From sequence record PX104378.1: 64,000 bases of DNA; one strand, 5' to 3'. Source of the stretch: a phage. The notes under the pieces were generated by a model that searched no databases, had not been told where the DNA came from, and saw nothing but the letters and a program-made list of their open reading frames with translations. A program made the translations under genes and the position numbers. Shown here one piece after another: positions 2,847 through 58,836 of the stretch. Within the stretch, counting starts at the first letter, position 1. The number at the start of each line of letters is the position of its first letter.

Positions 2847-2875
2847 ATTATAGGGGATCGATGATCCCCTGTCAA
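2847..2875 (-). promoter_or_regulatory. sigma70-type early promoter cassette
   Basis: minus strand TTGACA-GGGGATCATCGATCCCC(17)-TATAAT; palindromic spacer with two GATC. Confidence 0.6.
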
Positions 2876-2882
2876 CAACTTT

Positions 2883-3401
2883 TTAGTTATTTTTTAATTG
2901 CTCATCTTGCAATAAAGCAATCACATGCTGGCGATGTTCTTCCGATTGAGGCACACCGAAAAAGTTTGTTTTGTAGAAATACTCTAATCGGTCTTCTCGT
3001 GTGCTCTCTTCCATCATGATCGCGGGTAGTCCGAGATTTCGGAAACGTCGCTTTTCTGCTGGCGTAAAATCGCTGTAATACAGCATAGAATCATCATTAC
3101 CAGCAATGCTAAACTCATCCTTCATGAAGGAGAATATTGCGTTTAAACGCTGTTTACCGTCCACTATTTCGATTTCATAGCGAGAGCCATCATCAATCTT
3201 AGCCATTGCGATAGCACCAACCGGAAAATCATTAATCAGGTTTTCGATAAACATACGTTTGTTTTCGGTGTCCCATACCAAAGGACGCTGATAATCTGGG
3301 TTCATGTTGATATAGCCATCTTCTAACCACGCCTCATAAACAGAGATGACAAAGTTTTTAGTATTGGTATAGTAACGGCGTTTAGGAGTTAAACGGTTCA
3401 T
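2883..3401 (-). CDS. standalone DUF262 / ParB-like domain protein
   Basis: 172 aa; YQRPLVW and IVDGKQRLNAIF match the DUF262 QR..VW and DGQQR motifs; no DUF1524/HNH partner domain. Confidence 0.6.
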   Translation of the reverse strand: MNRLTPKRRYYTNTKNFVISVYEAWLEDGYINMNPDYQRPLVWDTENKRMFIENLINDFPVGAIAMAKIDDGSRYEIEIVDGKQRLNAIFSFMKDEFSIAGNDDSMLYYSDFTPAEKRRFRNLGLPAIMMEESTREDRLEYFYKTNFFGVPQSEEHRQHVIALLQDEQLKNN

Positions 3402-3577
3402 AGTGTGCTTACCTTTTCAATATATGCGTCCGCATACTGGCGAATGCTCATTTCTTCTCGTACTGCTGCTACAAATTCTTTCATGGATTCAAACCATTTG
3501 TAGGTGTCGCGATACATGACCAACTCTTCCCAAGTAAGATCGCAAATCTCTTTACCGTGTAGTTGTGGTGTTATCAT
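3398..3577 (-). CDS. small hypothetical protein (59 aa)
   Basis: ATGA start/stop overlaps with both neighbours (translational coupling); not in ORF track because under 60 aa. Confidence 0.4.
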   Translation of the reverse strand: MITPQLHGKEICDLTWEELVMYRDTYKWFESMKEFVAAVREEMSIRQYADAYIEKVSTL

Positions 3578-3912
3578 AATATAGTTCTCCTGAATGGATC
3601 ATCACGTAAATCAATATCTTTTAAGAACTCATCCCATGAATAGCGGATATTGTTCTTAATTCTCCAGATAAGCGCAGGGATTGAACGCTCTCCCATCTGG
3701 AAGTATGGATCGTATGATCCGTATGCCCAATATGCTACTACAATTCCACAATCAGCGCAATAGTATTCTATTTCACTTGCTGGCGACAAAAGTCCATCAA
3801 TATGATCAGTGATCTTGCTTTCGATGTTATGGCTATGACAATCAGGGCAACGGATGCAATGACCTTGTTTATCGTAATTTGACGTTAGCGAATACTTAAA
3901 CAATCTCATCAT
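3574..3912 (-). CDS. Cys/His-rich Zn-binding protein (112 aa)
   Basis: CIRCPDCHSH ... CADCG cysteine/histidine cluster; 4-nt overlaps with flanking genes. Confidence 0.5.
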   Translation of the reverse strand: MMRLFKYSLTSNYDKQGHCIRCPDCHSHNIESKITDHIDGLLSPASEIEYYCADCGIVVAYWAYGSYDPYFQMGERSIPALIWRIKNNIRYSWDEFLKDIDLRDDPFRRTIL

Positions 3913-4625
3913 AGATCCTTATTGGCTTCAAATACTGCCTTTGCGAATCCTCGCGGGGTAAGTGACCTGATAGTCTTTGTTCTGGTTCCTTTCCCGCCTA
4001 GCTTAGAATGCTGTTTACTGTACCCTTTCTCAATCGGCAACGGTTTCTTTTCTGGCATTATAAAGCCTTGTCCGGTCCATAAGCAAGTCTTTTTCGGGTA
4101 CATATCACGGGCGGCAATATACTCAGGAAACGTAGGATGTATATCATCTTCCGGCAAATAACCGCCATATTCCCACGGGTGGAACATGTAATCAGGCTTA
4201 CGCCACATGCTAGAGATAACGCTTACAGGATTCTCTATCATGTAGGGAACTCCTAGCCATTCACCCAAATAAGCGGTTATTTTAGCTGCCCGTACATCAT
4301 GAACTTGAATTAATGGTCCTTGCTCTCGTTTCTTTCGTTCAAAGTGTGCAGCGCCACTAACAGCTAAATTGGTACACGGTGGGAATGCAAAGATAATATC
4401 CGGTTTCCCCCATTCAAGGTCCATTGCTCTTTCCAGCCAATTCAAATCAATCCATGTGTTTACATAGGTAATGTTTGGATGTTCAAATCGGGTATTATAT
4501 TTTTTGTATGTACCGTGGTCGCCGTCGTCAGCATTGAAGCAGATCACCTTATGACCTGCTTTAGCCCATTCTAGCCCCATTATCCCCGATCCGTCAAAGT
4601 TGCAGAATATTAATTTTTGTTTCAT
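3909..4625 (-). CDS. truncated C5-cytosine methyltransferase-like protein
   Basis: 238 aa; FCNFDGSGIMG (motif I FxGxG), FPPCTNLAVSG (motif IV PC), YMIENP (motif VI ENV-like); no TRD or motifs IX-X. Confidence 0.5.
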   Translation of the reverse strand: MKQKLIFCNFDGSGIMGLEWAKAGHKVICFNADDGDHGTYKKYNTRFEHPNITYVNTWIDLNWLERAMDLEWGKPDIIFAFPPCTNLAVSGAAHFERKKREQGPLIQVHDVRAAKITAYLGEWLGVPYMIENPVSVISSMWRKPDYMFHPWEYGGYLPEDDIHPTFPEYIAARDMYPKKTCLWTGQGFIMPEKKPLPIEKGYSKQHSKLGGKGTRTKTIRSLTPRGFAKAVFEANKDL

Positions 4626-4867
4626 ATACGCCCCTTTAACCCAACACAGATTTTAGAAGGTTCTTTACCGTGCCACATTAAGTAAAGTCCGTTAGTGCGG
4701 CCTTGTTTTGTATATGATTCTTTTCTAATCTTCTTATAGTGTCGTGCTTCCTCAACCGATTGTTTAGAATACCAATCATAAAGGAAGATGAACAAAGGCC
4801 AACCATTAGCGGCCTTAATGCAGTTATTAAGAAATTCCTTATTGCGTTTAATTAATTTTCTTTTCAC
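4622..4867 (-). CDS. hypothetical basic protein (81 aa)
   Basis: ORF with 4-nt overlaps to both neighbours. Confidence 0.5.
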   Translation of the reverse strand: MKRKLIKRNKEFLNNCIKAANGWPLFIFLYDWYSKQSVEEARHYKKIRKESYTKQGRTNGLYLMWHGKEPSKICVGLKGRI

Positions 4868-5115
4868 GCTGCCCCCGTTGGTTTGATAGTAACAGAATCT
4901 AAAAGACCTTTGTTAGCCAGTTCGCGGCAAGTTTTCAGATCCGCAACTTCCCAGCCAGCCGCAATCAGGTTATCTATGAGGCTGTTAGCAACTTCCTCGC
5001 TCATGAAAGAGCACTGTTTGCCGATGGTGTAGCGTACACGCTGTAATTTCAGTTTACGGAAGCCTTTAACGTTCAGGTCTTTAGCGATTTTCTTTGCGGT
5101 TTCGATGTTAGCCAT
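4864..5115 (-). CDS. hypothetical protein (83 aa), first gene of coupled operon
   Basis: starts MANIE; conserved leader AGGAGAATCAAACAATG downstream of promoter cassette. Confidence 0.55.
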   Translation of the reverse strand: MANIETAKKIAKDLNVKGFRKLKLQRVRYTIGKQCSFMSEEVANSLIDNLIAAGWEVADLKTCRELANKGLLDSVTIKPTGAA

Positions 5116-5155
5116 TGTTTGATTCTCCTAAGTGGTATCTCGTCTTGATGGTTGT

Positions 5156-5184
5156 ATTGTAGGGGAGTTATCCTCCCCTGTCAA
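5156..5184 (-). promoter_or_regulatory. sigma70-type early promoter cassette
   Basis: TTGACA-GGGGAGGATAACTCCCC(17)-TACAAT on minus strand. Confidence 0.55.
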
Positions 5185-5198
5185 CACTTTTTATAAAA

Positions 5199-5366
5199 TT
5201 ATTTGTTAATTTCTGGTGCGTTGCTAGGATAGTAACCTTCTTTAACTCCGAGGTATTTCGCAACCATCCCTACAATCTTCTGTGCTACTACAATGTCAAA
5301 TTTCAGATAATCTTCGCCGTGGGTTTCAATGATATATGCTTCACATGCTGCTTTAGTCTCGAACAT
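5199..5366 (-). CDS. small hypothetical protein (55 aa), paralog of 8461..8628
   Basis: MFETKAACEAYIIETHGEDYLKFDIVVAQKIVGMVAKYLGVKEGYYPSNAPEINK; nearly identical to the 8461..8628 product. Confidence 0.5.
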   Translation of the reverse strand: MFETKAACEAYIIETHGEDYLKFDIVVAQKIVGMVAKYLGVKEGYYPSNAPEINK

Positions 5367-5399
5367 TTTGATTCTCCTATTTCGTTTCGGTATGTGTGT

Positions 5400-5428
5400 A
5401 TTATAGGGGATCTCCCGATCCCCGTCAA
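5400..5428 (-). promoter_or_regulatory. sigma70-type early promoter cassette
   Basis: TTGACG-GGGATCGGGAGATCCCC(17)-TATAAT on minus strand. Confidence 0.55.
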
Positions 5429-5442
5429 CAACTTTTTTAAAA

Positions 5443-5724
5443 TTATTCGTGATTAGTTTCGATGTTGTACATTTTGCACCAGTTCAGCCAATCGCCCAGA
5501 TCTTGATAGTTGATGCTTTTATCTGCGGCCATCGTTTTTGTCTTGATACCCATATGTGCGTTATGAGTAAGCATTTTTACAGTGAACTCAATTTTATCGC
5601 CTTTAGCTTTAACATCAACCAGTTTGGTCCACTGGCTACCAGCACCGCGAATGTTCATACCAACGATGTTTCCGATGTATGCTTCTTTGTTTTTCAGGAT
5701 TTCGGTTGCTTTGATGAATTTCAT
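5443..5724 (-). CDS. hypothetical protein (93 aa)
   Basis: ORF behind cassette leader GGAGAATCAAAAATG. Confidence 0.55.
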   Translation of the reverse strand: MKFIKATEILKNKEAYIGNIVGMNIRGAGSQWTKLVDVKAKGDKIEFTVKMLTHNAHMGIKTKTMAADKSINYQDLGDWLNWCKMYNIETNHE

Positions 5725-5757
5725 TTTTGATTCTCCAGTTCGTTTCGGTATGTGTGT

Positions 5758-5786
5758 ATTATGCTATGTTCTTACTTTGGTGTCAA
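5758..5786 (-). promoter_or_regulatory. sigma70-type early promoter cassette
   Basis: TTGACA-N17-CATAAT on minus strand. Confidence 0.55.
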
Positions 5787-5795
5787 CAACTTTTT

Positions 5796-6065
5796 TTAGA
5801 TATTTTCAGAAATAAATTTTAAAACTTGACGTAAATGTTTCTCATCTTTGATGGTAGCCGGAAGTTCTTCTTTTACTTCCTGTGCAAGATAGATATTTCC
5901 GTTCCAAGTGAAAGATCCGTCTTCGTTTACTCGATAGCTGAACATCCACTCGCAATCATTTTCGATTTCATATACACACAGAAGGGTGTAATCGTTAAAG
6001 CTATTGATTTCAAGGTCGAAGCCGTGACGTTTTGCAAAGTTGGTAGTGGTTTTAGTCAGTGCCAT
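5796..6065 (-). CDS. hypothetical protein (89 aa)
   Basis: ORF behind cassette leader AGGAGAATCAAACAATG. Confidence 0.55.
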   Translation of the reverse strand: MALTKTTTNFAKRHGFDLEINSFNDYTLLCVYEIENDCEWMFSYRVNEDGSFTWNGNIYLAQEVKEELPATIKDEKHLRQVLKFISENI

Positions 6066-6105
6066 TGTTTGATTCTCCTAAGTGGTATCTCGTTTCGATG
6101 TGTGT

Positions 6106-6134
6106 ATTATGCTATAGGCTAGACCAGGTGTCAA
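6106..6134 (-). promoter_or_regulatory. sigma70-type early promoter cassette
   Basis: TTGACA-N17-CATAAT on minus strand. Confidence 0.55.
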
Positions 6135-6160
6135 CAACTTTTTTTAATTTTTTTGGAAAT

Positions 6161-6185
6161 AAAAAAGCCGACGCTAAGGTCGGCT
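6161..6185 (-). terminator. rho-independent terminator
   Basis: AGCCGAC-GCTAAG-GTCGGCT hairpin followed on minus strand by UUUUUU. Confidence 0.6.
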
Positions 6186-6192
6186 AATAAAA

Positions 6193-6501
6193 TCATTTAG
6201 ACAAATAATCATTCTGTGCAATCCGGTCGGCGTATGCTGGTGTTACGTCAATCGCAATCACTTTAACGCGTGCTTTCTTGCGACCTGGGTTTTCTCGTAA
6301 CCAGTGCTCATGACCGTGAACATTTTTATACTGCGATGCTTCTTCGAAGGTACGGATCGGACCTGGGTAATCAGCGTAAAGGATCTCTAGATCTTCGGTG
6401 ATGTAAAAATATACATCGTAATTGCTGTTCTCTAGCTTAAGCAGAGACTTTCGGAACATTGGGAGATTTTCGCGGGTAAATTCAAAGATATTATCTTTCA
6501 T
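6193..6501 (-). CDS. HxHW-family small protein, copy 1 (102 aa)
   Basis: HGHEHW ... VKVIAIDV motif shared with five paralogs; GAGGA SD. Confidence 0.6.
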   Translation of the reverse strand: MKDNIFEFTRENLPMFRKSLLKLENSNYDVYFYITEDLEILYADYPGPIRTFEEASQYKNVHGHEHWLRENPGRKKARVKVIAIDVTPAYADRIAQNDYLSK

Positions 6502-6515
6502 AGTATTATCCTCAA

Positions 6516-6536
6516 TAGTTGGATGAAAAGGGGGCT
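6516..6536 (-). terminator. GC hairpin terminator
   Basis: GGGGGC-TTAAC-GCCCCC followed on minus strand by UUUU. Confidence 0.55.
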
Positions 6537-6551
6537 TAACGCCCCCATATA

Positions 6552-6839
6552 TTAAAACAGTCCTTCTTGTACGCCGTAGTAGAGTTCGTCGCTGATAATT
6601 TCATTAATGCGACGGTGTGCATATTCCTGATTTGCGAAGTTGTCAGCAAGTTCTACTTTAGTTTCGCCGTCATGAGTCCATTTAGTGATAACTTTACCAT
6701 CTGCAAATTTGAAGTTGAACTCTTTAGCTACTGCATCGCGTACCAGACGTGCAAACTTGTTGTTACGGATTGCATTATCGGTTTCGTGTGCAGCGTGAGC
6801 AAATTTGTTAACTTTCAGCGTGATAGTGATGTATGCCAT
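6552..6839 (-). CDS. hypothetical protein (95 aa)
   Basis: ORF behind cassette leader TAGGAGAATCAAATTATG. Confidence 0.55.
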   Translation of the reverse strand: MAYITITLKVNKFAHAAHETDNAIRNNKFARLVRDAVAKEFNFKFADGKVITKWTHDGETKVELADNFANQEYAHRRINEIISDELYYGVQEGLF

Positions 6840-6885
6840 AATTTGATTCTCCTAGTTAGAAAGTGTATCTCGTTTCGATGGGTGT

Positions 6886-6914
6886 ATTATGCTATACACC
6901 CGATCTTATGTCAA
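6886..6914 (-). promoter_or_regulatory. sigma70-type early promoter cassette
   Basis: TTGACA-N17-CATAAT on minus strand. Confidence 0.55.
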
Positions 6915-6920
6915 CACTTT

Positions 6921-7199
6921 TTATAAAATAATTTTTTGATATTTTTCTATGATGTTCGTGTAATCCACATCAACCGCTATCACCGTTGCTTCGAATCCAC
7001 CGTTTAGCCAATGGCTATGGTCATGATCGTGAAAGAAACCAAGACCAGTACGAAGACCTTCTTTATATTCGGCGCGTACATTTAGATCATCATCGATAAA
7101 CAGATAAAACCATGAATTTTTACTAGGATTGATGATACAACCTTTCAGATTAGGGAGAATATCACGACTAAGAATAAACTTATCACCTACTTTGAACAT
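6921..7199 (-). CDS. HxHW-family small protein, copy 2
   Basis: HDHDHSHW ... TVIAVDV; start moved to internal ATG (MFKVGDKF) that has a GAGGA SD. Confidence 0.55.
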   Translation of the reverse strand: MFKVGDKFILSRDILPNLKGCIINPSKNSWFYLFIDDDLNVRAEYKEGLRTGLGFFHDHDHSHWLNGGFEATVIAVDVDYTNIIEKYQKIIL

Positions 7200-7203
7200 A
7201 ATA

Positions 7204-7524
7204 TTAGTCCTCACTTATAAGGTCAAACCAATTGTTTTTCGCATAATGCTTAATGCGTGCTTGATCTGCTTCTGCTGGTGATAGATTCCATGCAACCACT
7301 ACAACTTCTGACGCATCGTCATCCGTTTCTGATACCCAATGATTATGATTCATACAATTGTTTGCTATCGCGTGAGCAAATGATTTCATCACTGGAGACG
7401 TATAATCATAGTAACGGATTTTCAGATTTTCATCAACGTACAAATAGATCGTATAAGGTTTATATTCAGTAACCAGTAACAGACAGTTACGCAATTCTGG
7501 GAAAATATTTTTAGTTAATTTCAT
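7204..7524 (-). CDS. HxHW-family small protein, copy 3 (106 aa)
   Basis: NHNHW ... VVVVAWN; GGAGAA SD. Confidence 0.55.
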   Translation of the reverse strand: MKLTKNIFPELRNCLLLVTEYKPYTIYLYVDENLKIRYYDYTSPVMKSFAHAIANNCMNHNHWVSETDDDASEVVVVAWNLSPAEADQARIKHYAKNNWFDLISED

Positions 7525-7739
7525 ATTCTAGTTCTCCGTAATACACGGTAATCCATTTTTTCTTCATACTTTGTATCTTTCCAACACACAATCCCGTTTA
7601 CTGTGCAATCTTTGGAATTGACGAATGATTCATATTGTTCTGCATCTTCCATCATTGCATGAGCGGTCTTTTCATCGAATATATCGCAGATCGCTTTATA
7701 TGCTCGATAATCTTTAAATTTGCTCATAATTAAGACCAC
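7521..7739 (-). CDS. hypothetical protein (72 aa), tandem paralog A
   Basis: MSKFKDYRAYK... shares N-terminus and C..W..T.Y pattern with 7730..7939. Confidence 0.5.
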   Translation of the reverse strand: MVLIMSKFKDYRAYKAICDIFDEKTAHAMMEDAEQYESFVNSKDCTVNGIVCWKDTKYEEKMDYRVLRRTRI

Positions 7740-7939
7740 TCAAGAGTTTTTGAAAACACATCTATCCATTGTTGAGTATATGCGGTTTCTTTCCATGATA
7801 CAATACCAGTCGAATAATGGTTTTTGTTTCCAGAAAAGGACGGGCATTTTGAGGCATCTTCCATCATCTTTTCGGCGAACTCTGGTTCGTATACTCGCAA
7901 GATCTGTTGATATGCTTTATAATCTTTAAATTTGCTCAT
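7730..7939 (-). CDS. hypothetical protein (69 aa), tandem paralog B
   Basis: MSKFKDYKAYQ... paralog of 7521..7739. Confidence 0.5.
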   Translation of the reverse strand: MSKFKDYKAYQQILRVYEPEFAEKMMEDASKCPSFSGNKNHYSTGIVSWKETAYTQQWIDVFSKTLEWS

Positions 7940-8204
7940 AATTGTTAACTACCTTATCAGCTTCTTTTATTGTTTTTACATCAACTGCGATAATCCGTAA
8001 AGGTTCGTCGAAGGTCCACCAATGATCGTGATTATCAGCTTGTGATTTATCACCAAAGGAATCACGAATATCATTTTTACATTTATAGCTAATGTGACCT
8101 TCATAGTCAACATAAAGGTAATTATCAAAAATCGGCGTTTTTAAGATCATACCGAAAAATCTTTCTTTGTGTGTCTTATCCAGCGTTGCAGTAATTCGCA
8201 TCAT
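7926..8204 (-). CDS. HxHW-family small protein, copy 4 (92 aa)
   Basis: DNHDHWW ... RIIAVDV; AGAGGA SD. Confidence 0.6.
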   Translation of the reverse strand: MMRITATLDKTHKERFFGMILKTPIFDNYLYVDYEGHISYKCKNDIRDSFGDKSQADNHDHWWTFDEPLRIIAVDVKTIKEADKVVNNYEQI

Positions 8205-8216
8205 AATATATTCCTC

Positions 8217-8396
8217 TTAGAAAGGGATGGTCATTTCTTGAGCTTGTACATTCTCGTTAGGATTAAACTTCATCCAACCGATATTGTCTACCAGCATATG
8301 CACATTTTTATCATATCCTACGTGAGTAGTCAATACTGTATGTGCTTTACCTTCAACGATGATTTCCATGTACTTCTGAACTTCGATAGCTTTCAT
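8217..8396 (-). CDS. small hypothetical protein (59 aa)
   Basis: MKAIEVQKYMEIIVEGKAHTVL...; cassette leader GGAGAATCAAAATG. Confidence 0.45.
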   Translation of the reverse strand: MKAIEVQKYMEIIVEGKAHTVLTTHVGYDKNVHMLVDNIGWMKFNPNENVQAQEMTIPF

Positions 8397-8428
8397 TTTG
8401 ATTCTCCGTTTGTTGTCTTGATGGGAGT

Positions 8429-8457
8429 ATCTTACTACTCCCTTTAATCATTGTCAA
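8429..8457 (-). promoter_or_regulatory. sigma70-type early promoter cassette
   Basis: TTGACA-N17-TAAGAT on minus strand. Confidence 0.5.
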
Positions 8458-8460
8458 CGA

Positions 8461-8628
8461 TTATTTGTTAATTTCCGGTGCGTTGCTTGGATAGTAACCT
8501 TCTTTAACACCCAGATATTTTGCAACCATTCCGGTGATCTTCTGTGCTACTACGATATCGAATTTCAGGTAGTCTTCACCGTGGTTTGCTACAATGTATG
8601 CTTCGCATTCTGCTTTAGTCTGGAACAT
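8461..8628 (-). CDS. small hypothetical protein (55 aa), paralog of 5199..5366
   Basis: MFQTKAECEAYIVANHGEDYLKFDIVVAQKITGMVAKYLGVKEGYYPSNAPEINK; start taken at internal ATG behind the cassette leader. Confidence 0.5.
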   Translation of the reverse strand: MFQTKAECEAYIVANHGEDYLKFDIVVAQKITGMVAKYLGVKEGYYPSNAPEINK

Positions 8629-8662
8629 TTTTGATTCTCCTATATCTCGTTGGTATGTGTGC

Positions 8663-8692
8663 ATTATAGGGGATCGGTGACCCCCCTGTCAA
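8663..8692 (-). promoter_or_regulatory. sigma70-type early promoter cassette
   Basis: TTGACA-GGGGGGTCACCGATCCCC(18)-TATAAT on minus strand. Confidence 0.55.
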
Positions 8693-8699
8693 CAACTTT

Positions 8700-9002
8700 T
8701 TATTCTTCGTCTTTATCTTTATATGCGTATTTCATAAATTTGTCTGCCACTTCGTCCGCGTTTTCAGGTTCTACGTCTGACGCTAGGACAACAGCTAGTT
8801 CGGTTTTGTCGTTTCCATCATACCAATGATTATGAGTGTCGTTTTCTTCGATATAAAACGAATCATTTGGATATGGGCGACAATATACGTCTAAATTCCC
8901 ATCGATATAAAAGATCCAATCCGAATACAAAATGATTGTTTTAGCCAGATTTTTATTGTCTCTTACAAAAGGTTCCGCGACAAATAGCTTAGTTTGTTCC
9001 AT
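8700..9002 (-). CDS. HxHW-family small protein, copy 5
   Basis: THNHW ... LAVVLASDV; start at internal ATG (MEQTKLF) with GAGGAG SD. Confidence 0.55.
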   Translation of the reverse strand: MEQTKLFVAEPFVRDNKNLAKTIILYSDWIFYIDGNLDVYCRPYPNDSFYIEENDTHNHWYDGNDKTELAVVLASDVEPENADEVADKFMKYAYKDKDEE

Positions 9003-9018
9003 AGTAATCTCCTCAAAA

Positions 9019-9210
9019 TTATACAACTTCGTAAACTTCCCAATGTCCAACACCGGAACGCTTAACGAAAAGGTTTTCTTTGATGTTATTCATAAACGTC
9101 TGGATGGATTTAATGCGGTTGGAAGGTTTCCAGTCTTCGTTGGCATTGCGGCGATACATAATAACATTACCAGTTCTCTTATATTCAGCAACCATTTTAA
9201 GACCACACAT
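9019..9210 (-). CDS. hypothetical protein (63 aa)
   Basis: ORF with GAGGA SD 9 nt upstream. Confidence 0.4.
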   Translation of the reverse strand: MCGLKMVAEYKRTGNVIMYRRNANEDWKPSNRIKSIQTFMNNIKENLFVKRSGVGHWEVYEVV

Positions 9211-9267
9211 AATATTATCCTCAATTTATGGGAGAGTATTACCCCTCCCAATGATTGTTATATTACA

Positions 9268-9588
9268 TCACACAAAATGGCGTTTCAATGCTTCTTTTGC
9301 GGTTCCGCTAAGACTTTCGATCTCGCCTGGCATAACATCAACTGCCAGAACTTCTACAACATCCTCTGACCCCAACCAGTGAGTATGACCTTTGTAGAAC
9401 TTGATAACCAGACTACCTTCCTCATCCCATTTAACGCTATCGCTAGCCCACCACACATCACCGTCGATAAAGTTGATGTAAAGCACACTACGCCACATTG
9501 AATTAATTACTTTCAATACTGCGCCTTTCATATCTTCCACGGTGTGGTCTTCCATTTTGAAGACCTCGCCTACCTGAACTTTTGCCAT
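9268..9588 (-). CDS. HxHW-family small protein, copy 6 (106 aa)
   Basis: GHTHW ... VLAVDV; GAGGTGA SD. Confidence 0.6.
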   Translation of the reverse strand: MAKVQVGEVFKMEDHTVEDMKGAVLKVINSMWRSVLYINFIDGDVWWASDSVKWDEEGSLVIKFYKGHTHWLGSEDVVEVLAVDVMPGEIESLSGTAKEALKRHFV

Positions 9589-9605
9589 TTAGTCACCTCT
9601 CTTTA

Positions 9606-9785
9606 TTACATAACAATCACGCCAGCCGTTGAAAGTTGATGTTTCAACTGAGCATTTTCTGCTACTGTCAAATCAATGATTTCTTGTGACGCTGCAATCA
9701 TATAACCATTGGTGATATTGTTTTGCATCAGTTCAATGGTTTCTTCGTTGTAGCGGATTTTAGCGATGATTTCGTTGAAGTTCAT
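9606..9785 (-). CDS. small hypothetical protein (59 aa)
   Basis: MNFNEIIAKIRYNEETIELMQ...; cassette leader TAGGAGAATCAAACATG. Confidence 0.45.
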   Translation of the reverse strand: MNFNEIIAKIRYNEETIELMQNNITNGYMIAASQEIIDLTVAENAQLKHQLSTAGVIVM

Positions 9786-9819
9786 GTTTGATTCTCCTAG
9801 TTCGTTTCGGTATGTGTGT

Positions 9820-9848
9820 AGTATAGGGGATCACCGATCCCCTGTCAA
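9820..9848 (-). promoter_or_regulatory. sigma70-type early promoter cassette
   Basis: TTGACA-GGGGATCGGTGATCCCC(17)-TATACT on minus strand. Confidence 0.55.
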
Positions 9849-9861
9849 CAACTTTTTTGAA

Positions 9862-10338
9862 TTATTTTTCTTGATGCTCGCGCTCGTACTTTTCGAAATA
9901 AAATTCTACTGGCTGGTCGTGGATTGACAGTAAGCCAAAGCGTTTAGCCGCTCGCAACCCCATATTGCGCTGAATGTACTTCTGGAAGTTCTCGCGTATA
10001 CACTTACGCCAGTATTCTAAGCCCATACAGCTTTTATAAAGATTGCATTGCACACACGCCGGATTCATGTTATCAAGTATATCATGCTCCGGTTTATGCA
10101 TTCCTACAACCTTATACTTCCACGATCCATCATCATTACGGGCAATTCGTCCATTTTCATCATAGACTACTTTTGAGCGTCGTAATACTGGTTTGATGTG
10201 GTCTGCGTGCCAGCGATCCCCTAGTTCCTCGCCACAATAGGCACAACGTCCACCATATTTCATTTTCAGGATCTGGCGTTGCTCTTTCTTTGACAATTTT
10301 TTAGGTTTAGGGGCTTTCGCCCCTTCATTATCACACAT
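9862..10338 (-). CDS. HNH endonuclease (homing-endonuclease-like)
   Basis: 158 aa; CAYCG ... WHADHIKP ... NMNPACVQCN (HNH with flanking Cys pairs); start overlaps ligase stop by 8 nt. Confidence 0.7.
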   Translation of the reverse strand: MCDNEGAKAPKPKKLSKKEQRQILKMKYGGRCAYCGEELGDRWHADHIKPVLRRSKVVYDENGRIARNDDGSWKYKVVGMHKPEHDILDNMNPACVQCNLYKSCMGLEYWRKCIRENFQKYIQRNMGLRAAKRFGLLSIHDQPVEFYFEKYEREHQEK

Positions 10339-13729: not shown

Positions 13730-13933
13730 TTAACCGTATACGCGAAAGTATTCTACTGATCCGTCGCTATACTGTTTTACATTGAATGTATTCACACCAT
13801 GATCATTGCTCATAATGACATATACACTACGACGCTCATCACCAAACGGGTTAACTGGTGCGGGTTCAATTTCAACATTAAAACCACGTTTAGCAAGTGC
13901 TTCGCCTAATTGCTTGAGTTTATCGGTAAACAT
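13730..13933 (-). CDS. hypothetical protein (67 aa)
   Basis: ORF; stop overlaps pseT start region. Confidence 0.5.
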   Translation of the reverse strand: MFTDKLKQLGEALAKRGFNVEIEPAPVNPFGDERRSVYVIMSNDHGVNTFNVKQYSDGSVEYFRVYG

Positions 13934-14832
13934 TAAAAGTCTCCGTAGTTAACCTGAAAACATTCTACACCAATTGATCGGTACATGTCAACCACTTGAT
14001 CACGGTCATCTACTGCCAACACAACATGATAACGCGGTGCAATTTCAGAGAAGAAAATCTCTTTCTTCACTTCATGATCAGGACGACGATCATTAGTTTC
14101 ACGTTGAAAGTGATCACTAGGTTCGATACCTTGTTCACGCAACCATTGCAGCGTATCTTCCTCGCAAACATCCTCACGTCCTGAGCACGTAATGATACGA
14201 TAGCCATTATCACGATACAGTTTAAGCATTTCGATCACTTGCGGACGCGGTTTATCTTCTTTGACCTTTGTCCAGTCAAACGGATGACGACCGCCCTTAT
14301 CCGCTAATGTTCCATCAATATCAAAGATCACTGCCTTCGGCAGCATGGTATTCGGTTTGTATACTTCTTGACCCATATATTCCTGCATCAGATAAAATTG
14401 GTTACGCAAATGAGAAAGTGGAATTGCTTTCTCGCCGCGATAGAAATTACGTTTCTTTAGTGTCTCAAATGATTCATTGAACACTTGTTCAGTATACACC
14501 GCGTTAAATTCTTTTGCAAGTTCTTTGTAGAATACACGATGTTTTTCTTTCAGGTTGGTATCGGAGATAATGATACTCAATCCGCGTGATAGAGTCTCAC
14601 GAGCAATCATTCTCTGAATAGACTCTACCAGCTTTTCTTTTTCCTTAGTATACTTGTATTTCAAAAGTGAGTCAACACCAAACAACATAAGACGAAGATC
14701 ATCGCGATTCACATTACGATAATTACTAAACCGTTTACATGTTTCCATAGCCCATGTAGTTTTACCGGACCCAGAACAACCAACGGTTAAAATCACTTCA
14801 CATTTCGGCATTATTTCTCCTTCGGTTTGCAC
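13933..14832 (-). CDS. pseT: polynucleotide 5'-kinase / 3'-phosphatase
   Basis: 299 aa; P-loop GCSGSGKTT; phosphatase DxDGT (VIFDIDGTLA); collinear with recalled T4 Pnk to the C-terminal QVNYGDF. Confidence 0.9.
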   Translation of the reverse strand: MQTEGEIMPKCEVILTVGCSGSGKTTWAMETCKRFSNYRNVNRDDLRLMLFGVDSLLKYKYTKEKEKLVESIQRMIARETLSRGLSIIISDTNLKEKHRVFYKELAKEFNAVYTEQVFNESFETLKKRNFYRGEKAIPLSHLRNQFYLMQEYMGQEVYKPNTMLPKAVIFDIDGTLADKGGRHPFDWTKVKEDKPRPQVIEMLKLYRDNGYRIITCSGREDVCEEDTLQWLREQGIEPSDHFQRETNDRRPDHEVKKEIFFSEIAPRYHVVLAVDDRDQVVDMYRSIGVECFQVNYGDF

Positions 14833-43808: not shown

Positions 43809-43818
43809 CAACTATTTT

Positions 43819-44093: not shown

Positions 44094-44100
44094 CTGGTTT

Positions 44101-44343: not shown

Positions 44344-44377
44344 TTTTATTTCCTCCAGTTCGTTTCGGTATGGGAGT

Positions 44378-44406
44378 ATAATACTACCGATGACCTTTGG
44401 CGTCAA
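44378..44406 (-). promoter_or_regulatory. sigma70-type early promoter cassette
   Basis: TTGACG-N17-TATTAT on minus strand. Confidence 0.45.
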
Positions 44407-44779: not shown

Positions 44780-45052
44780 TCACCAATCAAGAGCGCGTGT
44801 CTCTGCGTCTTCCCATGCTTGATCCATAACAGCCTTGAAAACATATTCTAAGGTATCATCTTTCGAGAATCCGAAGATCTTAGACGGAATATCTTCAATT
44901 GCTACTCCAGCAACTTCCGCATTACGTGCCTGGCAATAATGCAACTCTAAGTTATCGAGATAACGACCGCCTAATTTCTCCATATCGTCCCAGCATTTCC
45001 AGTAACCTACTTTATCGGCAATTGCTAACACTTTGCTGTTTTTGTTGCTCAT
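44780..45052 (-). CDS. hypothetical protein (90 aa)
   Basis: start at MSNKNSK behind cassette leader AAAGGAGAATCAAAGATG. Confidence 0.5.
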   Translation of the reverse strand: MSNKNSKVLAIADKVGYWKCWDDMEKLGGRYLDNLELHYCQARNAEVAGVAIEDIPSKIFGFSKDDTLEYVFKAVMDQAWEDAETRALDW

Positions 45053-45083
45053 CTTTGATTCTCCTTTTGTTTGGTATGTGTGT

Positions 45084-45112
45084 ATTATGCAATGTTTGAT
45101 TATGGAAGTCAA
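45084..45112 (-). promoter_or_regulatory. sigma70-type early promoter cassette
   Basis: TTGACT-N17-CATAAT on minus strand. Confidence 0.5.
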
Positions 45113-45125
45113 CAACTTTTCAAAT

Positions 45126-45151
45126 AAAAAAGCCGACCACAAGGATCGGCT
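45126..45151 (-). terminator. rho-independent terminator
   Basis: AGCCGA...TCGGCT hairpin followed on minus strand by UUUUUUAUUUG. Confidence 0.5.
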
Positions 45152-45161
45152 TAATAATCAG

Positions 45162-45554
45162 TTACTTACTAAATTTCTTTTTGGCTTCGTCTACTGCATG
45201 AGATGCCAGTACCGCCGCCGCATGTGCGCTTTTATCTGTGTTACAGAGAACACCCAAATAAACATCACGCCAAAGTTTAATCATCTCATAGATCATATCA
45301 ATATCATTTTCTTGTTTGTTGGCGATGCTACTTGTCGTTATCTGGTAAGGCAACGGTTTAATCTGTACTGGATCTGCCATTGGGCTAATCGGTTTCGGTT
45401 CGGTCATAATAGGTGCTGTTGGTGATGTTTTCCATACGCTATCATGCCACGGTTTAATCGTTGTATCGTACAGTTTGTAAGGATTTTTATCTGGATTAAC
45501 CATCCATGCATGATGATTACCCAAACCATTTGAAGTGATGCGTCGTTCAGTCAT
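45162..45554 (-). CDS. hypothetical protein (130 aa)
   Basis: ORF. Confidence 0.5.
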   Translation of the reverse strand: MTERRITSNGLGNHHAWMVNPDKNPYKLYDTTIKPWHDSVWKTSPTAPIMTEPKPISPMADPVQIKPLPYQITTSSIANKQENDIDMIYEMIKLWRDVYLGVLCNTDKSAHAAAVLASHAVDEAKKKFSK

Positions 45555-51941: not shown

Positions 51942-52182
51942 TTTGATTCTCCTTTGTTACTAGATAACGAATTTGGTCTTGCATTGCGATCAGTTCCCAG
52001 CGTGCTACTTTCATCATGGAAACTGACTCTTTGAACATAATATTAGCTTTTTCCTTTTCCCCTGTCAAGTAGATTTCTGAAATTTTTTCACAAAATTTTT
52101 GAGTTTCTTCATTCTTAAACGGTTTCATATAAGTCAACCTTTTGTTTTCGATGGGGATATTATGATATATCCCCGATCTCAT
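51934..52182 (-). CDS. hypothetical protein (82 aa)
   Basis: ORF. Confidence 0.45.
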   Translation of the reverse strand: MRSGIYHNIPIENKRLTYMKPFKNEETQKFCEKISEIYLTGEKEKANIMFKESVSMMKVARWELIAMQDQIRYLVTKENQNA

Positions 52183-52194
52183 GTCAACAACTTT

Positions 52195-52494
52195 TTAATC
52201 TTTTTTCAGTGCATCCATTACTCGCGCTGCGATCAGTTCTCGTAAGCACTGATAACCATGATATTTGATGGCAATGTCACGCAGATCATTAACCAGTTCC
52301 CGTACTTCATGGTCTTTCAAATCGTCTCTGTATTTCGATTTAACCGTGTCTTTAGGTGGATTGCGGATAACCTGAAAACCTTGTTCTGCAATCACTGCGG
52401 CTTCGCGCTGGCGTTCATGTTGTACTGTATTTTTGATCAGGTCTGCTTCCATGAACTTTGCCATACTCATCATCATGTTATTCTTTTTGCTCAT
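52195..52494 (-). CDS. hypothetical protein (99 aa)
   Basis: start at MSKKNNMMM with GAGGA SD downstream of promoter cassette. Confidence 0.45.
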   Translation of the reverse strand: MSKKNNMMMSMAKFMEADLIKNTVQHERQREAAVIAEQGFQVIRNPPKDTVKSKYRDDLKDHEVRELVNDLRDIAIKYHGYQCLRELIAARVMDALKKD

Positions 52495-57141: not shown

Positions 57142-57455
57142 TATCCTAAAATCCTCACCTTGCGAACACAGATAGTATTGAGTTCTCGCCGTACCCGTTC
57201 TTTTTCATATTCAGGAATTTTGTATTCTATACCATCCCGAACAATTTCAGAAGACCGGATTATACCAAATTTTCGTTTAGGCACAACCTTGTATTTCGGT
57301 TCACCTGCCAATAGACTCTCACAATAATCTATCTGATCACACATTGACGCTAACGCAGCATCATGAGTTTCGCAAGTTAGGACGCGACCTTTCGCGTCCA
57401 CTGAGTATTGAAAGAATCCGTCTTTATCACGATAACATACAGCAAATACATGCAT
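57141..57455 (-). CDS. hypothetical protein (104 aa)
   Basis: ORF; start/stop abut neighbours. Confidence 0.5.
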   Translation of the reverse strand: MHVFAVCYRDKDGFFQYSVDAKGRVLTCETHDAALASMCDQIDYCESLLAGEPKYKVVPKRKFGIIRSSEIVRDGIEYKIPEYEKERVRRELNTICVRKVRILG

Positions 57456-58210
57456 TATAAACCTACCTTCGCTTTCATCAATTCAATCCACGACGCATCA
57501 ATCGGAAGCCCGTATTTCACGCGTTCTTTTTGTGCTGGCGTTAAGTTCTCATACTTAGAAAGAGATTCAATCAAAACGCTGGTATATTTTAGCACGATTT
57601 CGGTATTGTTTGCAATAGCCTTGAGTTTTTCCTCTTTCTTGTTGATTTCGCTAAGGGCTTGCTTGAGATCTGCAATTTTCTGATAACGTTCTTCCATACG
57701 GAAGAGAGTATTTTTAATCGCTCGCTCGGCTGCCTCTGCTTTCTCCGGTTCGTTGTGCTTTTTGTGGCGCTCGATTGCTAATTTCTTTTCTTCGATTGCC
57801 ATTTCCTGATTTTTGATGCGATTCTCGTTAAGTTCGATCCACTCGATGTACTTTGCACGTAGGGCGATCTCATCATCAGAAAGTTTACCGTTAGTTCCTA
57901 GTTCCTGGATCTCTTTAAGAGATTCGATAGTGTGATTGCCACGGAAAGAATTGTATTTCAGTTTAACCGGAATTACATTGCCATCAACATATCCCAGATT
58001 GCAATCAATGCGCTCTAAGGAGAGTCCGTCATCACCTTCACCGAAAGCCTCACCTGAATATGCGCAATGAGTCTGACGGTAAATGTTACGCACAGTGACT
58101 AAGCTCATAGAGAAGTCTTTGTTGCGACGTGAAGCGCCAGCCATGATAGAGTTCAGACGGAAAACAACCAGCGCCAATTCTTCGTTAGATTTAAAAGCAA
58201 ACAGTTTCAT
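57455..58210 (-). CDS. hypothetical coiled-coil protein (251 aa), srd-position
   Basis: Cys-containing N-terminal domain, Lys/Glu-rich central helix; sits where T4 carries srd; not recognised. Confidence 0.5.
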   Translation of the reverse strand: MKLFAFKSNEELALVVFRLNSIMAGASRRNKDFSMSLVTVRNIYRQTHCAYSGEAFGEGDDGLSLERIDCNLGYVDGNVIPVKLKYNSFRGNHTIESLKEIQELGTNGKLSDDEIALRAKYIEWIELNENRIKNQEMAIEEKKLAIERHKKHNEPEKAEAAERAIKNTLFRMEERYQKIADLKQALSEINKKEEKLKAIANNTEIVLKYTSVLIESLSKYENLTPAQKERVKYGLPIDASWIELMKAKVGL

Positions 58211-58271
58211 AATTGATTCTCCTTAGTTGGTATGTGTGTATTATTGTCTATCTGGTTTGTGCTGTCAACAC

Positions 58272-58775
58272 TTAAATTAAAGAAAATTTGTAAATCTCTA
58301 TCAGGTCGCCGTTACATGCGTAAACTTCCTCGATCTCATCAAGGATCATGGTCGTCCCTGTCTTGTATATGCACTCGCGCTCATCCGCCAACATAGCATA
58401 CAAAGACAGTCGAGTAGTCGGATTGTCATACTCTTTAGACACCACTCGATCAATAGCATGTTCGTAATAATTCATGCAAGGCTTGGTAGGTTTTATTGCA
58501 ATAATCTTTCCTGTTGCATAAACATCGGTTGCAAAGTCCTCTGCTGTTGATTGCAGTGGCGTAAAGCTCATAGGACGCTCTACAACGAAAGAATCGCCTA
58601 CAATTAAGGTATCCAGCTTACGGCCTTCTCTTTTGCTCACACCGCGATACAAGGCTTCATGATGCACTAACCGTTCAGTCTTTTCAATCAATCCATTAAG
58701 GATCGACATATCGATATTTTCTTTAGAGTTCATCACTTCATCAATGATGTTAAGTTCTTCTGGTGTAAATTGCAT
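58272..58775 (-). CDS. modA: ModA/ModB-like ADP-ribosyltransferase
   Basis: R-S-ExE pattern (LYRGV ... PLQSTAED ... ADERECIY); between dda and 56 as in T4; start at MQFTPEE with GGAGG SD. Confidence 0.6.
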   Translation of the reverse strand: MQFTPEELNIIDEVMNSKENIDMSILNGLIEKTERLVHHEALYRGVSKREGRKLDTLIVGDSFVVERPMSFTPLQSTAEDFATDVYATGKIIAIKPTKPCMNYYEHAIDRVVSKEYDNPTTRLSLYAMLADERECIYKTGTTMILDEIEEVYACNGDLIEIYKFSLI

Positions 58776-58808
58776 AATAAAAAGCCTCCAATCTTTCGAC
58801 GGGAGGCA

Positions 58809-58836
58809 TAATAAAACCATTATAGAGTAGTGTCAA
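58809..58836 (-). promoter_or_regulatory. sigma70-type early promoter
   Basis: TTGACA-N16-TATTAT on minus strand. Confidence 0.4.

Follow-up and report, generated by a model that had tools for sequence, protein, structure and literature searches.

Repeated early-promoter cassettes in a Krischvirus genome and their relation to the PeSLs of RB49 and phi1

Promoter-plus-leader units and their distribution

The stretch of phage DNA analyzed here (64,000 nucleotides of record PX104378.1; the window) comes from a Krischvirus and is ~95-98% identical to RB49, phi1, JK32 and others. Repeated units of promoter plus leader recur in its variable regions, ahead of small genes whose function is unknown. 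The exact pattern TTGACA-N15-19-TATAAT occurs at nine sites, every one on the minus strand, where shuffles predict 0.14. With at most one mismatch and a spacer of 16-18 nt, there are 33 minus-strand sites and one on the plus strand; dinucleotide shuffles give 1.5 on average and never more than 4. An independent consensus scan placed the same promoter sites in its top ranks. Thus, the minus-strand, near-consensus promoters noticed in a sequence-only reading recur well above chance, and the first and last sites fall where that reading had them, at 2847 and 58836. Approximately 13 of the 33 fall within coding sequence; these lack a leader and are not cassettes.

A profile of the whole unit (nhmmer; built from 20 copies, spanning -30 to +75) retrieved 22 full-length copies, all of them on the minus strand, with E-values of 3e-20 to 7e-10; the match ranked after them has E=2e-4. 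Approximately seven further units (462, 13991, 25408, 27461, 42296, 52556 and 58836) have a promoter and SD-ATG without the conserved leader. An earlier count of 'at least 23' copies was about right, because there are 22 in the strict sense and ~29 in a wider one. The cassettes cover 3.1% of the window, and ~20% of gene junctions bear one. Nine lie in 2807-9870, the region already singled out as the densest cluster (2847..9848). The full cassettes, each with the ORF that it would drive, are as follows:

2807..2896, minus strand: full cassette; -35 2875-2870, -10 2852-2847; spacer palindrome GGGGATCATCGATCCCC; before a 70-aa ORF (2598-2810), homolog of RB49 ORF185
5111..5208, minus strand: full cassette; -35 5184; spacer palindrome GGGGAGGATAACTCCCC; before an 83-aa ORF (4864-5115)
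5362..5452, minus strand: full cassette; -35 5428; before a 55-aa ORF (5199-5366)
5718..5813, minus strand: full cassette; -35 5786; no hairpin; before a 93-aa ORF (5443-5724)
6063..6185, minus strand: full cassette; -35 6134; canonical terminator hairpin and T-run (6185-6166) ahead of the promoter; before an 89-aa ORF (5796-6065)
6834..6934, minus strand: full cassette; -35 6914; stem GGGTGTAT/ACACCC over the -10 box; before a 95-aa ORF (6552-6839)
8389..8477, minus strand: full cassette; -35 8457; stem GGGAGTA/TACTCCC over the -10 box; before a 59-aa ORF (8217-8396)
8621..8704, minus strand: full cassette; -35 8692; 18-nt spacer with palindrome; before a 55-aa ORF (8461-8628)
9778..9870, minus strand: full cassette; -35 9848; spacer palindrome GGGGATCGGTGATCCCC; before a 59-aa ORF (9606-9785)
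17638..17738, minus strand: full cassette; -35 17713; stem GGGGGTA/TACCCCC over the -10 box; before a 132-aa ORF (17245-17643)
17924..18011, minus strand: full cassette; -35 17994; stem over the -10 box; before a 72-aa ORF (17714-17932)
18204..18311, minus strand: full cassette; -35 18273; canonical terminator (18311-18288) ahead; before a 72-aa ORF (18002-18220)
20470..20564, minus strand: full cassette; -35 20537; palindrome GCGGGGAGAAATCCCCGC; before a 55-aa ORF (20310-20477)
25691..25771, minus strand: full cassette; -35 25744; no hairpin; before a 107-aa ORF (25362-25685)
26324..26407, minus strand: full cassette; -35 26381; before a 196-aa ORF (25733-26323)
43517..43609, minus strand: full cassette; -35 43585; before a 255-aa ORF (42755-43522), a secreted protein with an LprI-like domain
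43739..43830, minus strand: full cassette; -35 43808; spacer palindrome GGGGATCGGCGATCCCC; before a 51-aa ORF (43593-43748)
44030..44115, minus strand: full cassette; -35 TTGACG at 44093, -10 TAATAT; stem over the -10 box; before a 70-aa ORF (43819-44031)
44338..44432, minus strand: full cassette; -35 44406; decayed stem; an upstream 74-aa ORF ends within the spacer; before an 80-aa ORF (44101-44343)
45045..45165, minus strand: full cassette; -35 45112; canonical terminator (AAGCCGATCCTTGTGGTCGGCTTTTTT) ahead; before a 90-aa ORF (44780-45052)
52142..52209, minus strand: full cassette; -35 52187; stem GGGGATAT/ATATCCCC over the -10 box; before a 64-aa ORF (51934-52128)
58203..58292, minus strand: full cassette; -35 58268; before a 251-aa ORF (57455-58210), an srd homolog

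Promoter-only units lie at:

401..462, minus strand: promoter-only unit downstream of alt; TTGACT-17-TATACT; stem over the -10 box, then TTTTCTGTT
13933..13991, minus strand: promoter-only unit; TTGACA-18-TAGAAT; ahead of a 67-aa ORF
25339..25408, minus strand: promoter-only unit; TTGACG-17-TATAAT; ahead of a 109-aa ORF
27391..27461, minus strand: promoter-only unit ahead of gene 32; -35, spacer and -10 identical to the 'early RB49 promoter' annotated in NC_005066
52494..52556, minus strand: promoter-only unit with exact hexamers; 12-bp stem (-20.7 kcal/mol) over the -10 box, then a T-run; before a 99-aa ORF
58775..58836, minus strand: promoter-only unit ahead of a modB homolog; hairpin 3' of the -10 box (GCCTCC...GGAGGC, then TTTTTATT) enclosing the SD

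Anatomy of the cassette

Each full copy occupies the entire intergenic gap and has the same order of elements: an A/T-rich tract with the upstream stop codon (TAAAAAGTTG), the -35 box, a 17-nt spacer, the -10 box, CAT, a short, A-rich and unstructured leader, GGAGAATCAAA and the ATG. Conservation extends beyond the hexamers to AAAAAGTTG 5' of the -35 box, to the CAT at the predicted +1 and to GGAGAATCAAA ahead of the ATG. The CAT is invariant, 6-8 nt past the -10 box, and (A)C(C)GAAAC comes next; GGAG[A/T]ATCA is present in 14 of 22 copies, with a GGAG-to-ATG gap of 7-9 nt. In 15 of 22 copies the upstream stop codon is 3-17 nt ahead of the -35 box; A+T makes up 75% of the 25 nt upstream, versus 59% of the window. 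The predicted 5'UTRs (mean 27.6 nt) fold at -0.03 kcal/mol per nt against a background of -0.13 (p=8e-11).

A GC-rich hairpin upstream of, or spanning, the predicted start site is found in approximately two thirds of copies. It takes the form of a G4...C4 palindrome within the spacer (seven copies), a stem spanning the -10 box (eight) or a hairpin just outside the promoter (at least four). Self-complementary stem-loops had been ascribed to many of the spacers; many units do carry one, but 8-9 of the 29 have no hairpin. The positions and energies (-10 to -21 kcal/mol) are those of the published PeSL classes (PMC2839356). The spacer palindromes fail a canonical intrinsic-terminator scan because UAUAAU follows them, not a U-tract. 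The loop of the palindrome reads GGT at some sites and ACC at their orthologs.

PeSL orthologs and indel breakpoints at the cassettes

RB49 and phi1, with 51 and 52 PeSLs respectively, are the phages in which these elements were defined (Arbiol, Comeau, Kutateladze, Adamia & Krisch 2010, Genome Biol Evol 2:140; PMC2839356). Our comparison supports the window cassettes being these same, already known elements of RB49-type T4-like coliphages, in line with the match to PeSLs of T4-type phages suggested by the sequence-only reading. Every defining feature that could be compared is present: a sigma-70 consensus promoter, an A/T-rich tract with the upstream stop, a stem-loop in the published positions, a 3' SD with start codon, and coinciding indel breakpoints. 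The genus, loci and anatomy are the same (~96% nucleotide identity to RB49 and phi1), as is the setting, hyperplastic regions in which the copies precede small ORFs of unknown function. Individual cassettes align base for base with published RB49/phi1 copies, with no essential difference. The ortholog of cassette 8692, for example, is PeSL206/205, for which a lacZ reporter yielded ~13,000 Miller units (PMC2839356); between the -10 box and the ATG, cassette 8692 does not differ from the RB49 copy. The RB49 early promoter consensus also agrees with 5'-end mapping (PMC1524935).

Breakpoints were mapped between the window and nine stretches from eight relatives. For 11 of the 19 gene-sized indels, at least one end is within a cassette (p ~4e-9 by position), and six of 11 single-site insertions are at cassette-bearing gene junctions (p=0.01); under the most conservative null, in which either end may hit such a junction, the association has p=0.035. 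This comparison backs the recombination-site role proposed earlier. In six events, the flanking alignment blocks overlap by 18-106 nt because the longer genome carries a cassette at both ends; some other events have one at a single end. The remaining eight indels lie away from cassettes (3401-3574, 4624-4851, 9588, 12876, 41318-41527, 54314, 59356 and 63759).

The individual loci reveal genes present or absent between cassettes. Relatives have an additional ORF186 between two cassettes at 2807..2896, RB49, JK32 and Brandy have +406 bp between two at 6063..6185, and RB49 and phi1 have ORF226 between two at 17638..17738. ORF192 (+530 bp) is present in RB49 and G2494 at 5362..5452; its loss left cassette 5428 as a phi1-type hybrid, PeSL193/191, with the upstream flank of RB49 PeSL193/192 and the remainder of PeSL192/191. 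ORF210/211 (+278 to +764 bp) is found at 9778..9870 in RB49, phi1, PHB13 and G2494, and ORF263.1 is inserted in phi1 at 43739..43830, where the 51-aa ORF between two cassettes is absent from phiS. Cassette 5111..5208 is the left end of the ORF191 deletion in JK32 and Brandy, and 44030..44115 that of a 523-bp segment missing in RB49, phi1 and KFS-EC. At 25691..25771 the window has 336 bp more than RB49, phi1 and JK32, a window-specific segment with the 25339..25408 unit at its left end; the 107-aa ORF here has no close match in the phage collection. A replacement breakpoint lies at 26325, by cassette 26324..26407, and the 196-aa ORF that follows has similarity to an endonuclease family only in that family's C-terminal third. 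The ORF186, ORF192, ORF210/211, ORF226 and ORF263.1 indels are common to the window and the RB49/phi1 PeSL loci, but the mix is the window's own: phi1-like at ORF192, JK32-like at ORF186, and with an extra cassette-plus-ORF at 25362-25771.

Proposed working, alternatives and related systems

We consider it highly probable (roughly 0.9) that the cassettes are PeSLs, self-contained intergenic linkers of ~65-100 bp. The TAA of the upstream gene lies within the conserved A/T-rich tract, which resembles an UP element. Host RNA polymerase, still unmodified, would use the near-consensus sigma-70 promoter as soon as infection begins, with transcription probably starting at the A of the invariant CAT, 7 nt past the -10 box. 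Since the hairpin lies in the spacer, across the -10 box or just upstream, it should be present only in RNA arriving from upstream and never in the cassette's own transcript. It could thereby attenuate or terminate read-through and insulate each small gene, presumably at every copy that has one. The leader (18-40 nt, ~50% A, almost free of predicted structure), with GGAGAATCAAA 7-9 nt before the ATG, should yield strong translation. Finally, ~90 bp of near-identical sequence recurs between unrelated genes, always in the same orientation, so phage homologous recombination would cross over between copies, and flanked small genes could be deleted, inserted or swapped along with the signals for their expression. 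The literature on orthologous copies is the source for promoter strength, terminator activity and mini-circle formation, and activity in the window is extrapolated from orthologs ~90-100% identical. PeSLs would thus switch on small accessory genes early and also serve as points where such genes are gained or lost.

The units could instead be ordinary strong early promoters with optimized ribosome-binding sites, convergent under selection for expression, with recombination incidental and no role in genome evolution. Most conserved positions do have a plausible expression role (UP-like A-tract, hexamers, CAT, A-rich leader, GGAG SD), eight of 19 indels are elsewhere, and PMC2839356 itself leaves open that shuffling is a by-product of an efficient phage recombination system. 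However, the likeness is continuous over ~90 nt (E to 3e-20) and includes spacer and leader positions with no known requirement. The sequence is found only in Krischvirus records, in 5-10 places each, and not in other T4-like genera with the same host polymerase. In addition, indel ends coincide exactly with hybrid cassettes and duplicated cassettes. We regard this explanation as unlikely, with perhaps one chance in four left to it.

A true mobile element, with the cassettes as its ends and a dedicated site-specific or structure-specific protein recognizing the GGGG...CCCC palindrome and moving the cassettes in an integron-like manner, is considerably less probable. This was raised as speculation in PMC2839356; the G4/C4 palindrome is conserved, its GGT/ACC loop flips suggest a structurally active DNA palindrome, and an HNH endonuclease gene (9862-10338) adjoins cassette 9848. 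Yet the spacer palindrome occurs in just seven of 29 units, and the hairpin-less copies 25744 and 26381 are at breakpoints too. The crossover in hybrid cassette 5428 is in the A/T-rich tract rather than the palindrome, published crossovers fall in the stretch from the -10 box to the SD or ATG, and neither RB49 nor phi1 has an identified integrase. That the repeats are remnants of tandem or dispersed duplication of whole gene-plus-promoter units is largely refuted, since only the 55-aa proteins driven by cassettes 5428 and 8692 are paralogs (89% identical) and the other 27 downstream proteins have no detectable mutual similarity (blastp, E<1e-3).

As PeSLs, the cassettes share a concept with the PeSL-like motifs of T4/PST and KVP40/nt-1 (Comeau, Arbiol & Krisch 2014, PMC4122927) and with T-even IP-locus elements: composite linkers of early promoter and stem-loop on either side of accessory genes that are swapped. 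They are analogs rather than homologs; T-even versions have a T4-type early promoter and weaker, A/T-rich stems. Lambdoid-phage morons and integron gene cassettes are likewise single accessory genes with their own expression signals, but morons have no conserved flanking linker, and integrons use attC sites and an integrase, of which none has been identified here.

The RegB-like SD block, GATC sites and loop flips are not mentioned in PMC2839356; the RegB/S1 near-match and the loop flips are the sole points that are possibly unreported. The SD block GGAGAAUCAAA matches 10 of 11 positions of the RegB/S1 endoribonuclease target consensus of T4-type phages, GGAGRAYARAA (Durand et al. 2006, PMC1702504), differing at position 8, which is C where the consensus strongly favors A. 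Like RegB/S1 targets, it is within the SD of early genes and predicted to be single-stranded. This candidate site may double as a point of cleavage that shuts the mRNA off later, and RB49 encodes an active, divergent RegB.

Cassette number and anatomy

Near-consensus sigma-70 promoters are concentrated on one strand of the window. The exact motif TTGACA-N15-19-TATAAT occurs nine times across the whole window, always on the minus strand, versus 0.14 in shuffles, and with a spacer of 16-18 nt and up to one mismatch there are 33 minus-strand sites against one on the plus strand. Dinucleotide shuffles yield a mean of 1.5 such sites and a maximum of 4, and an independent consensus scanner applied to 1-20000 ranked the same sites top. 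A cassette profile was made from 20 copies, spanning -30 to +75 as counted from the -35 box, and a search of both strands with it returned 22 full-length matches, all on the minus strand, with E-values of 3e-20 to 7e-10; the next match has E=2e-4. About seven further units, named like all others by the window coordinate of their -35 box, place a promoter 24-46 nt before an SD-ATG and lack the conserved leader. Of the 33 near-consensus sites, approximately 13 are intragenic; these also lack the leader and are not cassettes.

Promoter-only units and intragenic sites
Promoter-only units: 462, 13991, 25408, 27461, 42296, 52556, 58836
Intragenic near-consensus sites, minus strand, at most one mismatch (examples): 14995, 22937, 28233, 28781, 29281, 29823, 30380, 42565, 48726, 49615, 51573, 54473

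The sequence-only reading had counted at least 23 copies between 2847 and 58836, which is fair given 22 strict full-length copies and ~7 promoter-only units, and we find the same outer coordinates. Its densest cluster is borne out by nine cassettes in 2807-9870. The conserved leader that it described holds for the 22 full copies, but not for the promoter-only units or the intragenic sites. The latter share the strand of the early genes, ~13 being found versus ~1.5 expected across the whole strand, and may be internal early promoters or reflect a strand-specific composition bias. The RB49 record annotates internal early promoters inside gene 41.

Each cassette is the entire gap between two genes. 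All 29 units have at most three mismatches over the 12 hexamer positions and spacers of 16-18 nt, nine of them being exact; the cassette promoter consists of TTGACA, a spacer of mostly 17 nt and a T/C-A-T-A-A-T -10 box. In 15 of the 22 full copies an upstream stop codon, nearly always TAA, is found 3-17 nt before the -35 box within a conserved A/T-rich tract (consensus TAAAAAGTTG-TTGACA), and the 25 nt upstream of the -35 box average 75% A+T versus 59% for the window. Downstream, an invariant CAT occupies nucleotides 6-8 past the -10 box, so its A, 7 nt downstream of the box, is the likely transcription start. The predicted 5'UTR is 18-40 nt long (mean 27.6), ~50% A, and has a predicted folding energy of only -0.03 kcal/mol per nt versus -0.13 for random same-strand segments (p=8e-11). 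The unit ends with GGAG[A/T]ATCA in 14 of the 22 copies, 7-9 nt separate GGAG from the ATG, and an SD-ATG is located 24-46 nt after the -10 box in 29 of 29 units. Rfam, run over the complete window with its gathering thresholds, has no match, and the leader thus is not among the described RNA families.

Correspondence to published PeSLs

The window is a Krischvirus sequence, 95-98% identical to RB49, phi1, JK32, Skers and ~60 other records, with window position 49356 corresponding to RB49 position 1. Promoter-early stem-loop cassettes (PeSLs) were defined in RB49 (51 copies) and phi1 (52 copies) as a sigma-70 consensus promoter, an A/T-rich tract with an upstream stop, and an SD and ATG at the 3' end, carrying stable, often polyG/polyC stem-loops in five position classes, most commonly in the spacer or across the -10 box; they are mostly found in hyperplastic regions, ahead of ORFans (PMC2839356). 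Our profile matches 25 sites in the RB49 sequence compared and at least 22 in that of phi1. In the window, the units cluster at 2.8-9.9, 17.6-20.6, 25.3-26.4 and 43.5-45.1 kb, with no cassettes in the late tail-fibre block (30.5-40.9 kb). Most of the ORFs behind them are 51-132 aa long, and RB49/phi1 annotation labels them hypothetical.

Individual copies can be paired by alignment. Cassette 8692 is the ortholog of PeSL206/205, a published copy numbered by its flanking ORFs, and shows no difference from the RB49 copy between the -10 box and the ATG. In cassette 5428, the upstream flank of RB49 PeSL193/192 gives way within the A/T-rich tract to the PeSL192/191 body, exactly the topology of phi1, which was explained there by loss of ORF192 (PMC2839356). 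The gene 32 promoter (27461) is identical to the "early RB49 promoter" annotated in NC_005066. The identification as PeSLs that the sequence-only reading offered is therefore supported by the match in anatomy, loci, orthology and breakpoints alike, and the feature, already known in this phage group, is recognized here rather than discovered.

Among published copies, PeSL206/205 gave strong lacZ expression in a reporter, the PeSL211/210 stem-loop had terminator activity, and mini-circles arising from crossovers between neighbouring PeSLs were recovered by inverse PCR around ORF192 and ORF210, this in vivo evidence coming from RB49 and phi1 copies only (PMC2839356). By orthology, the window's cassettes would be expected to behave likewise.

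By sequence, the cassette is confined to Krischvirus. Sensitive blastn against 50,697 phage records returned Krischvirus only, plus two weak jumbo-phage matches (76% over ~70 nt, E~1e-4) that are probably chance or convergent consensus promoters, and an exact 19-mer scan of IMG/VR hit two contigs of 150-165 kb.

Weak matches in jumbo phages
OQ411014.1 (EJP2), 244702-244772
PQ464590.1 (Erwinia phage Hallingskeid), 126599-126665

The window's stem-loops have energies of -10 to -21 kcal/mol and fall among the five promoter-relative positions. There are seven in the spacer, eight over the -10 box and three or four 5' of the -35 box, and a single one follows the -10 box; 8-9 of the 29 units, 5786, 25744 and 26381 among them, have no hairpin. 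Self-complementary spacers, earlier said to be many, are thus a property of seven units, with the hairpin placed differently or missing elsewhere.

Hairpin classes
G4...C4 palindrome within the spacer: 2875, 5184, 5428, 8692, 9848, 20537, 43808
Stem with the -10 box as loop, 3' arm formed by the first transcribed bases: 462, 6914, 8457, 17713, 17994, 44093, 52187, 52556
Canonical terminator with T-run just 5' of the -35 box: 6134, 18273, 45112
Hairpin downstream of the -10 box: 58836

The spacer, -10-spanning and upstream-of--35 hairpins are complete only in RNA arriving from upstream, and never in the cassette's own transcript. In a terminator scan of 1-20000, only hairpins upstream of the -35 box pass (6185-6166 and 18311-18288); T-runs are visible by eye also at 45112, 52556, 462 and 58836. 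The spacer and -10-spanning hairpins fail the scan for canonical Rho-independent terminators (a GC-rich hairpin with a direct U-tract), as they are followed by UAUAAU or AUCGAA and no U-tract, and for these "attenuator" is consequently a safer label than "terminator."

Cassettes at insertion and deletion breakpoints

The window was aligned to nine stretches from RB49, phi1, JK32, Brandy, PHB13, G2494, phiS and KFS-EC, breaks of >40 bp were listed, and cassettes in the relatives were located with the same profile. Of 19 gene-sized events, 11 have an end in a cassette. In six, genes gained or lost are bounded by cassettes at both ends in the longer genome, and the flanking alignment blocks overlap by 18-106 nt, this overlap being the duplicated cassette.

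Events with an end in a cassette
2851/2810: ORF186, +211 bp in four relatives; cassettes at both ends
5206-5367: ORF191 absent in JK32 and Brandy; cassettes at both ends
5447: ORF192, +530 bp in RB49 and G2494; cassette detected at one end
6184/6087: +406 bp in RB49, JK32 and Brandy; cassettes at both ends
9875: ORF210/211, four relatives longer by 278-764 bp; cassettes at both ends (phi1) or at one end (RB49)
17726/17632: ORF226 in RB49 and phi1; cassettes at both ends
25357-25694: +336 bp in the window; one end a cassette, the other a promoter-only unit
26325: endonuclease gene replaced; cassette at one end
43600-43809: gene absent in phiS; cassettes at both ends
43822: ORF263.1 in phi1; cassette at one end
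44094-44618: +523 bp in the window; cassette at one end

Events away from cassettes
3401-3574, 4624-4851, 9588, 12876, 41318-41527, 54314, 59356, 63759

Cassettes make up 3.1% of the window, and their association with the events has p~4e-9 by position. Cassette-bearing junctions, ~20% of gene junctions, hold six of 11 single-site insertions (p=0.01), and the most conservative null, two-ended and at the junction level, gives p=0.035 for the nine stretches compared. The role as recombination sites proposed from the sequence is supported by this association. An origin of the repeats by gene duplication can be rejected, because in an all-against-all blastp the proteins behind the cassettes are mutually unrelated except for a single pair (5428 and 8692, 89% identical).

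The published mechanism is the best-supported reading of the anatomy, counts, orthology and breakpoint association observed here directly. The cassette would be early promoter, upstream-facing insulator and ribosome-binding-site linker in one, and would double as a homology patch for the phage recombination system; termination at every copy and an adaptive role for shuffling are presumed. Few concrete mechanisms have been put forward for how large lytic phages shuffle genes as modules, and PeSLs, conserved regulatory linkers that serve also as patches of homology, are one of them. The window independently replicates, in a genome outside the original work, the clustering of indel ends at cassettes, and leaves the picture unchanged. 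The catalogue also marks early transcription units and the safest insertion/deletion points for engineering Krischvirus therapy phages.

Variable loci
3398-3577, minus: 59-aa ORF exactly at the 4-nt overlap of the ORF187/ORF188 homologs, without flanking cassettes
25362-25685, minus: 107-aa ORF behind cassette 25744
25733-26323, minus: 196-aa ORF with cassette 26381 adjoining its ATG
44384-44608 and 44101-44343, minus: two small ORFs filling a 523-bp segment
12876-12902: +640 bp in PHB13 near gene 31.1, no cassette
54314-54396: +645 bp in phiS after gene 39, no cassette
59356-59368: +588 bp in phiS and KFS-EC between genes 56 and 61, no cassette
38721-39418, plus: ~700 bp of the distal tail-fibre gene (gp37 homolog), unalignable to RB49/phi1 (870 bp there)

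The 59-aa ORF has no Pfam or PHROG match; it is absent in six of six relatives aligned there and present, at 100% identity, in just two of ~60 Krischvirus records, kaaroe and FL04. The 107-aa ORF likewise has no Pfam/PHROG match, and nothing among 50,697 phage records resembles it closely at the DNA level (at best, 74% identity over 46% of its length); it represents either a genome-specific cassette-plus-ORF unit or a very divergent allele. For the 196-aa ORF, similarity to the endonuclease family phrog_681 is limited to positions 370-541 of 576, with a further match to the CapR homology domain; the ORF looks truncated, and the same locus in RB49 encodes a 485-aa endonuclease, ORF240. About half of Krischvirus records carry the 523-bp segment, which RB49, phi1 and KFS-EC lack. 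Neither of its ORFs has a family match; the 74-aa product has a signal-peptide or lipoprotein-like N-terminus, and its gene stops inside the promoter spacer of cassette 44406. The extra gene at 59356-59368 is an HNH endonuclease in the phiS annotation and is probably a homing-endonuclease insertion, and the tail-fibre segment is probably a host-range-determining variable region.

Palindrome loops and a possible RegB target

The spacer palindrome GGGGATC-NNN-GATCCCC has a 3-nt loop that flips at two orthologous cassettes, reading GGT in some close relatives and the reverse complement, ACC, in others, while the leaders flanking the palindrome are unmoved. Upstream of ORF205, the window, JK32, phi1, PHB13 and G2494 have ACC, and RB49 and Brandy have GGT; the opposite holds upstream of ORF209. 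This pattern is that expected of DNA hairpin-loop inversion, and suggests such a process.

Loop-flip loci
Window: 8663-8692 and 9820-9848
Stretch L001: 7567-7652 and 8712-8809; also in L004 and L003

The spacers hold 13 GATC sites versus ~3 expected. We set GATC aside as a regulatory feature, as the enrichment traces to the shared GGGGATC palindrome arms and the window as a whole has 369 sites versus 230 expected, that is, over-representation and no genome-wide avoidance. GATC occurs in 9 of the 29 units, differing hairpin classes included (for example 2875, 5428, 6914, 9848, 18273, 43808 and 52187), and its spacer position is near-fixed at bases 9-13 from the first base of the -35 box.

The RegB/S1 target consensus is the 11-nt GGAGRAYARAA (PMC1702504), single-stranded and placed in the SD of early mRNAs; the cassette leaders are predicted to be unstructured. 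The SD block GGAGAAUCAAA matches it at 10 of 11 positions, with C at position 8. Allowing up to one mismatch, there are 16 minus-strand sites and one plus-strand site, 12 of them in cassettes, and GGAGAAUCAAA is the recurring form. Since the divergent RegB of RB49 shows activity in vivo (PMC3014915), this match raises the possibility that the cassette may also programme early-mRNA inactivation. We hold it as a tentative proposal, at somewhat below even odds, that GGAGAAUCAAA is also a built-in RegB/S1 target and that, separately, the palindromes form DNA hairpins or cruciforms acting in recombination. If the SD block is such a target, any inserted gene would be insulated, strongly expressed from the outset and shut down once the early period is over. 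The terms "RegB," "GATC," "Dam" and "leader" do not occur in the 2010 PeSL paper (PMC2839356); the RegB-type target and loop-flip readings are not raised in the PeSL papers and may be new.

On the minus strand at 51941-51952, the 3' block of the cassette, GGAGAATCAAA-ATG, precedes a gene with no promoter part upstream, and may be a half cassette or a remnant.
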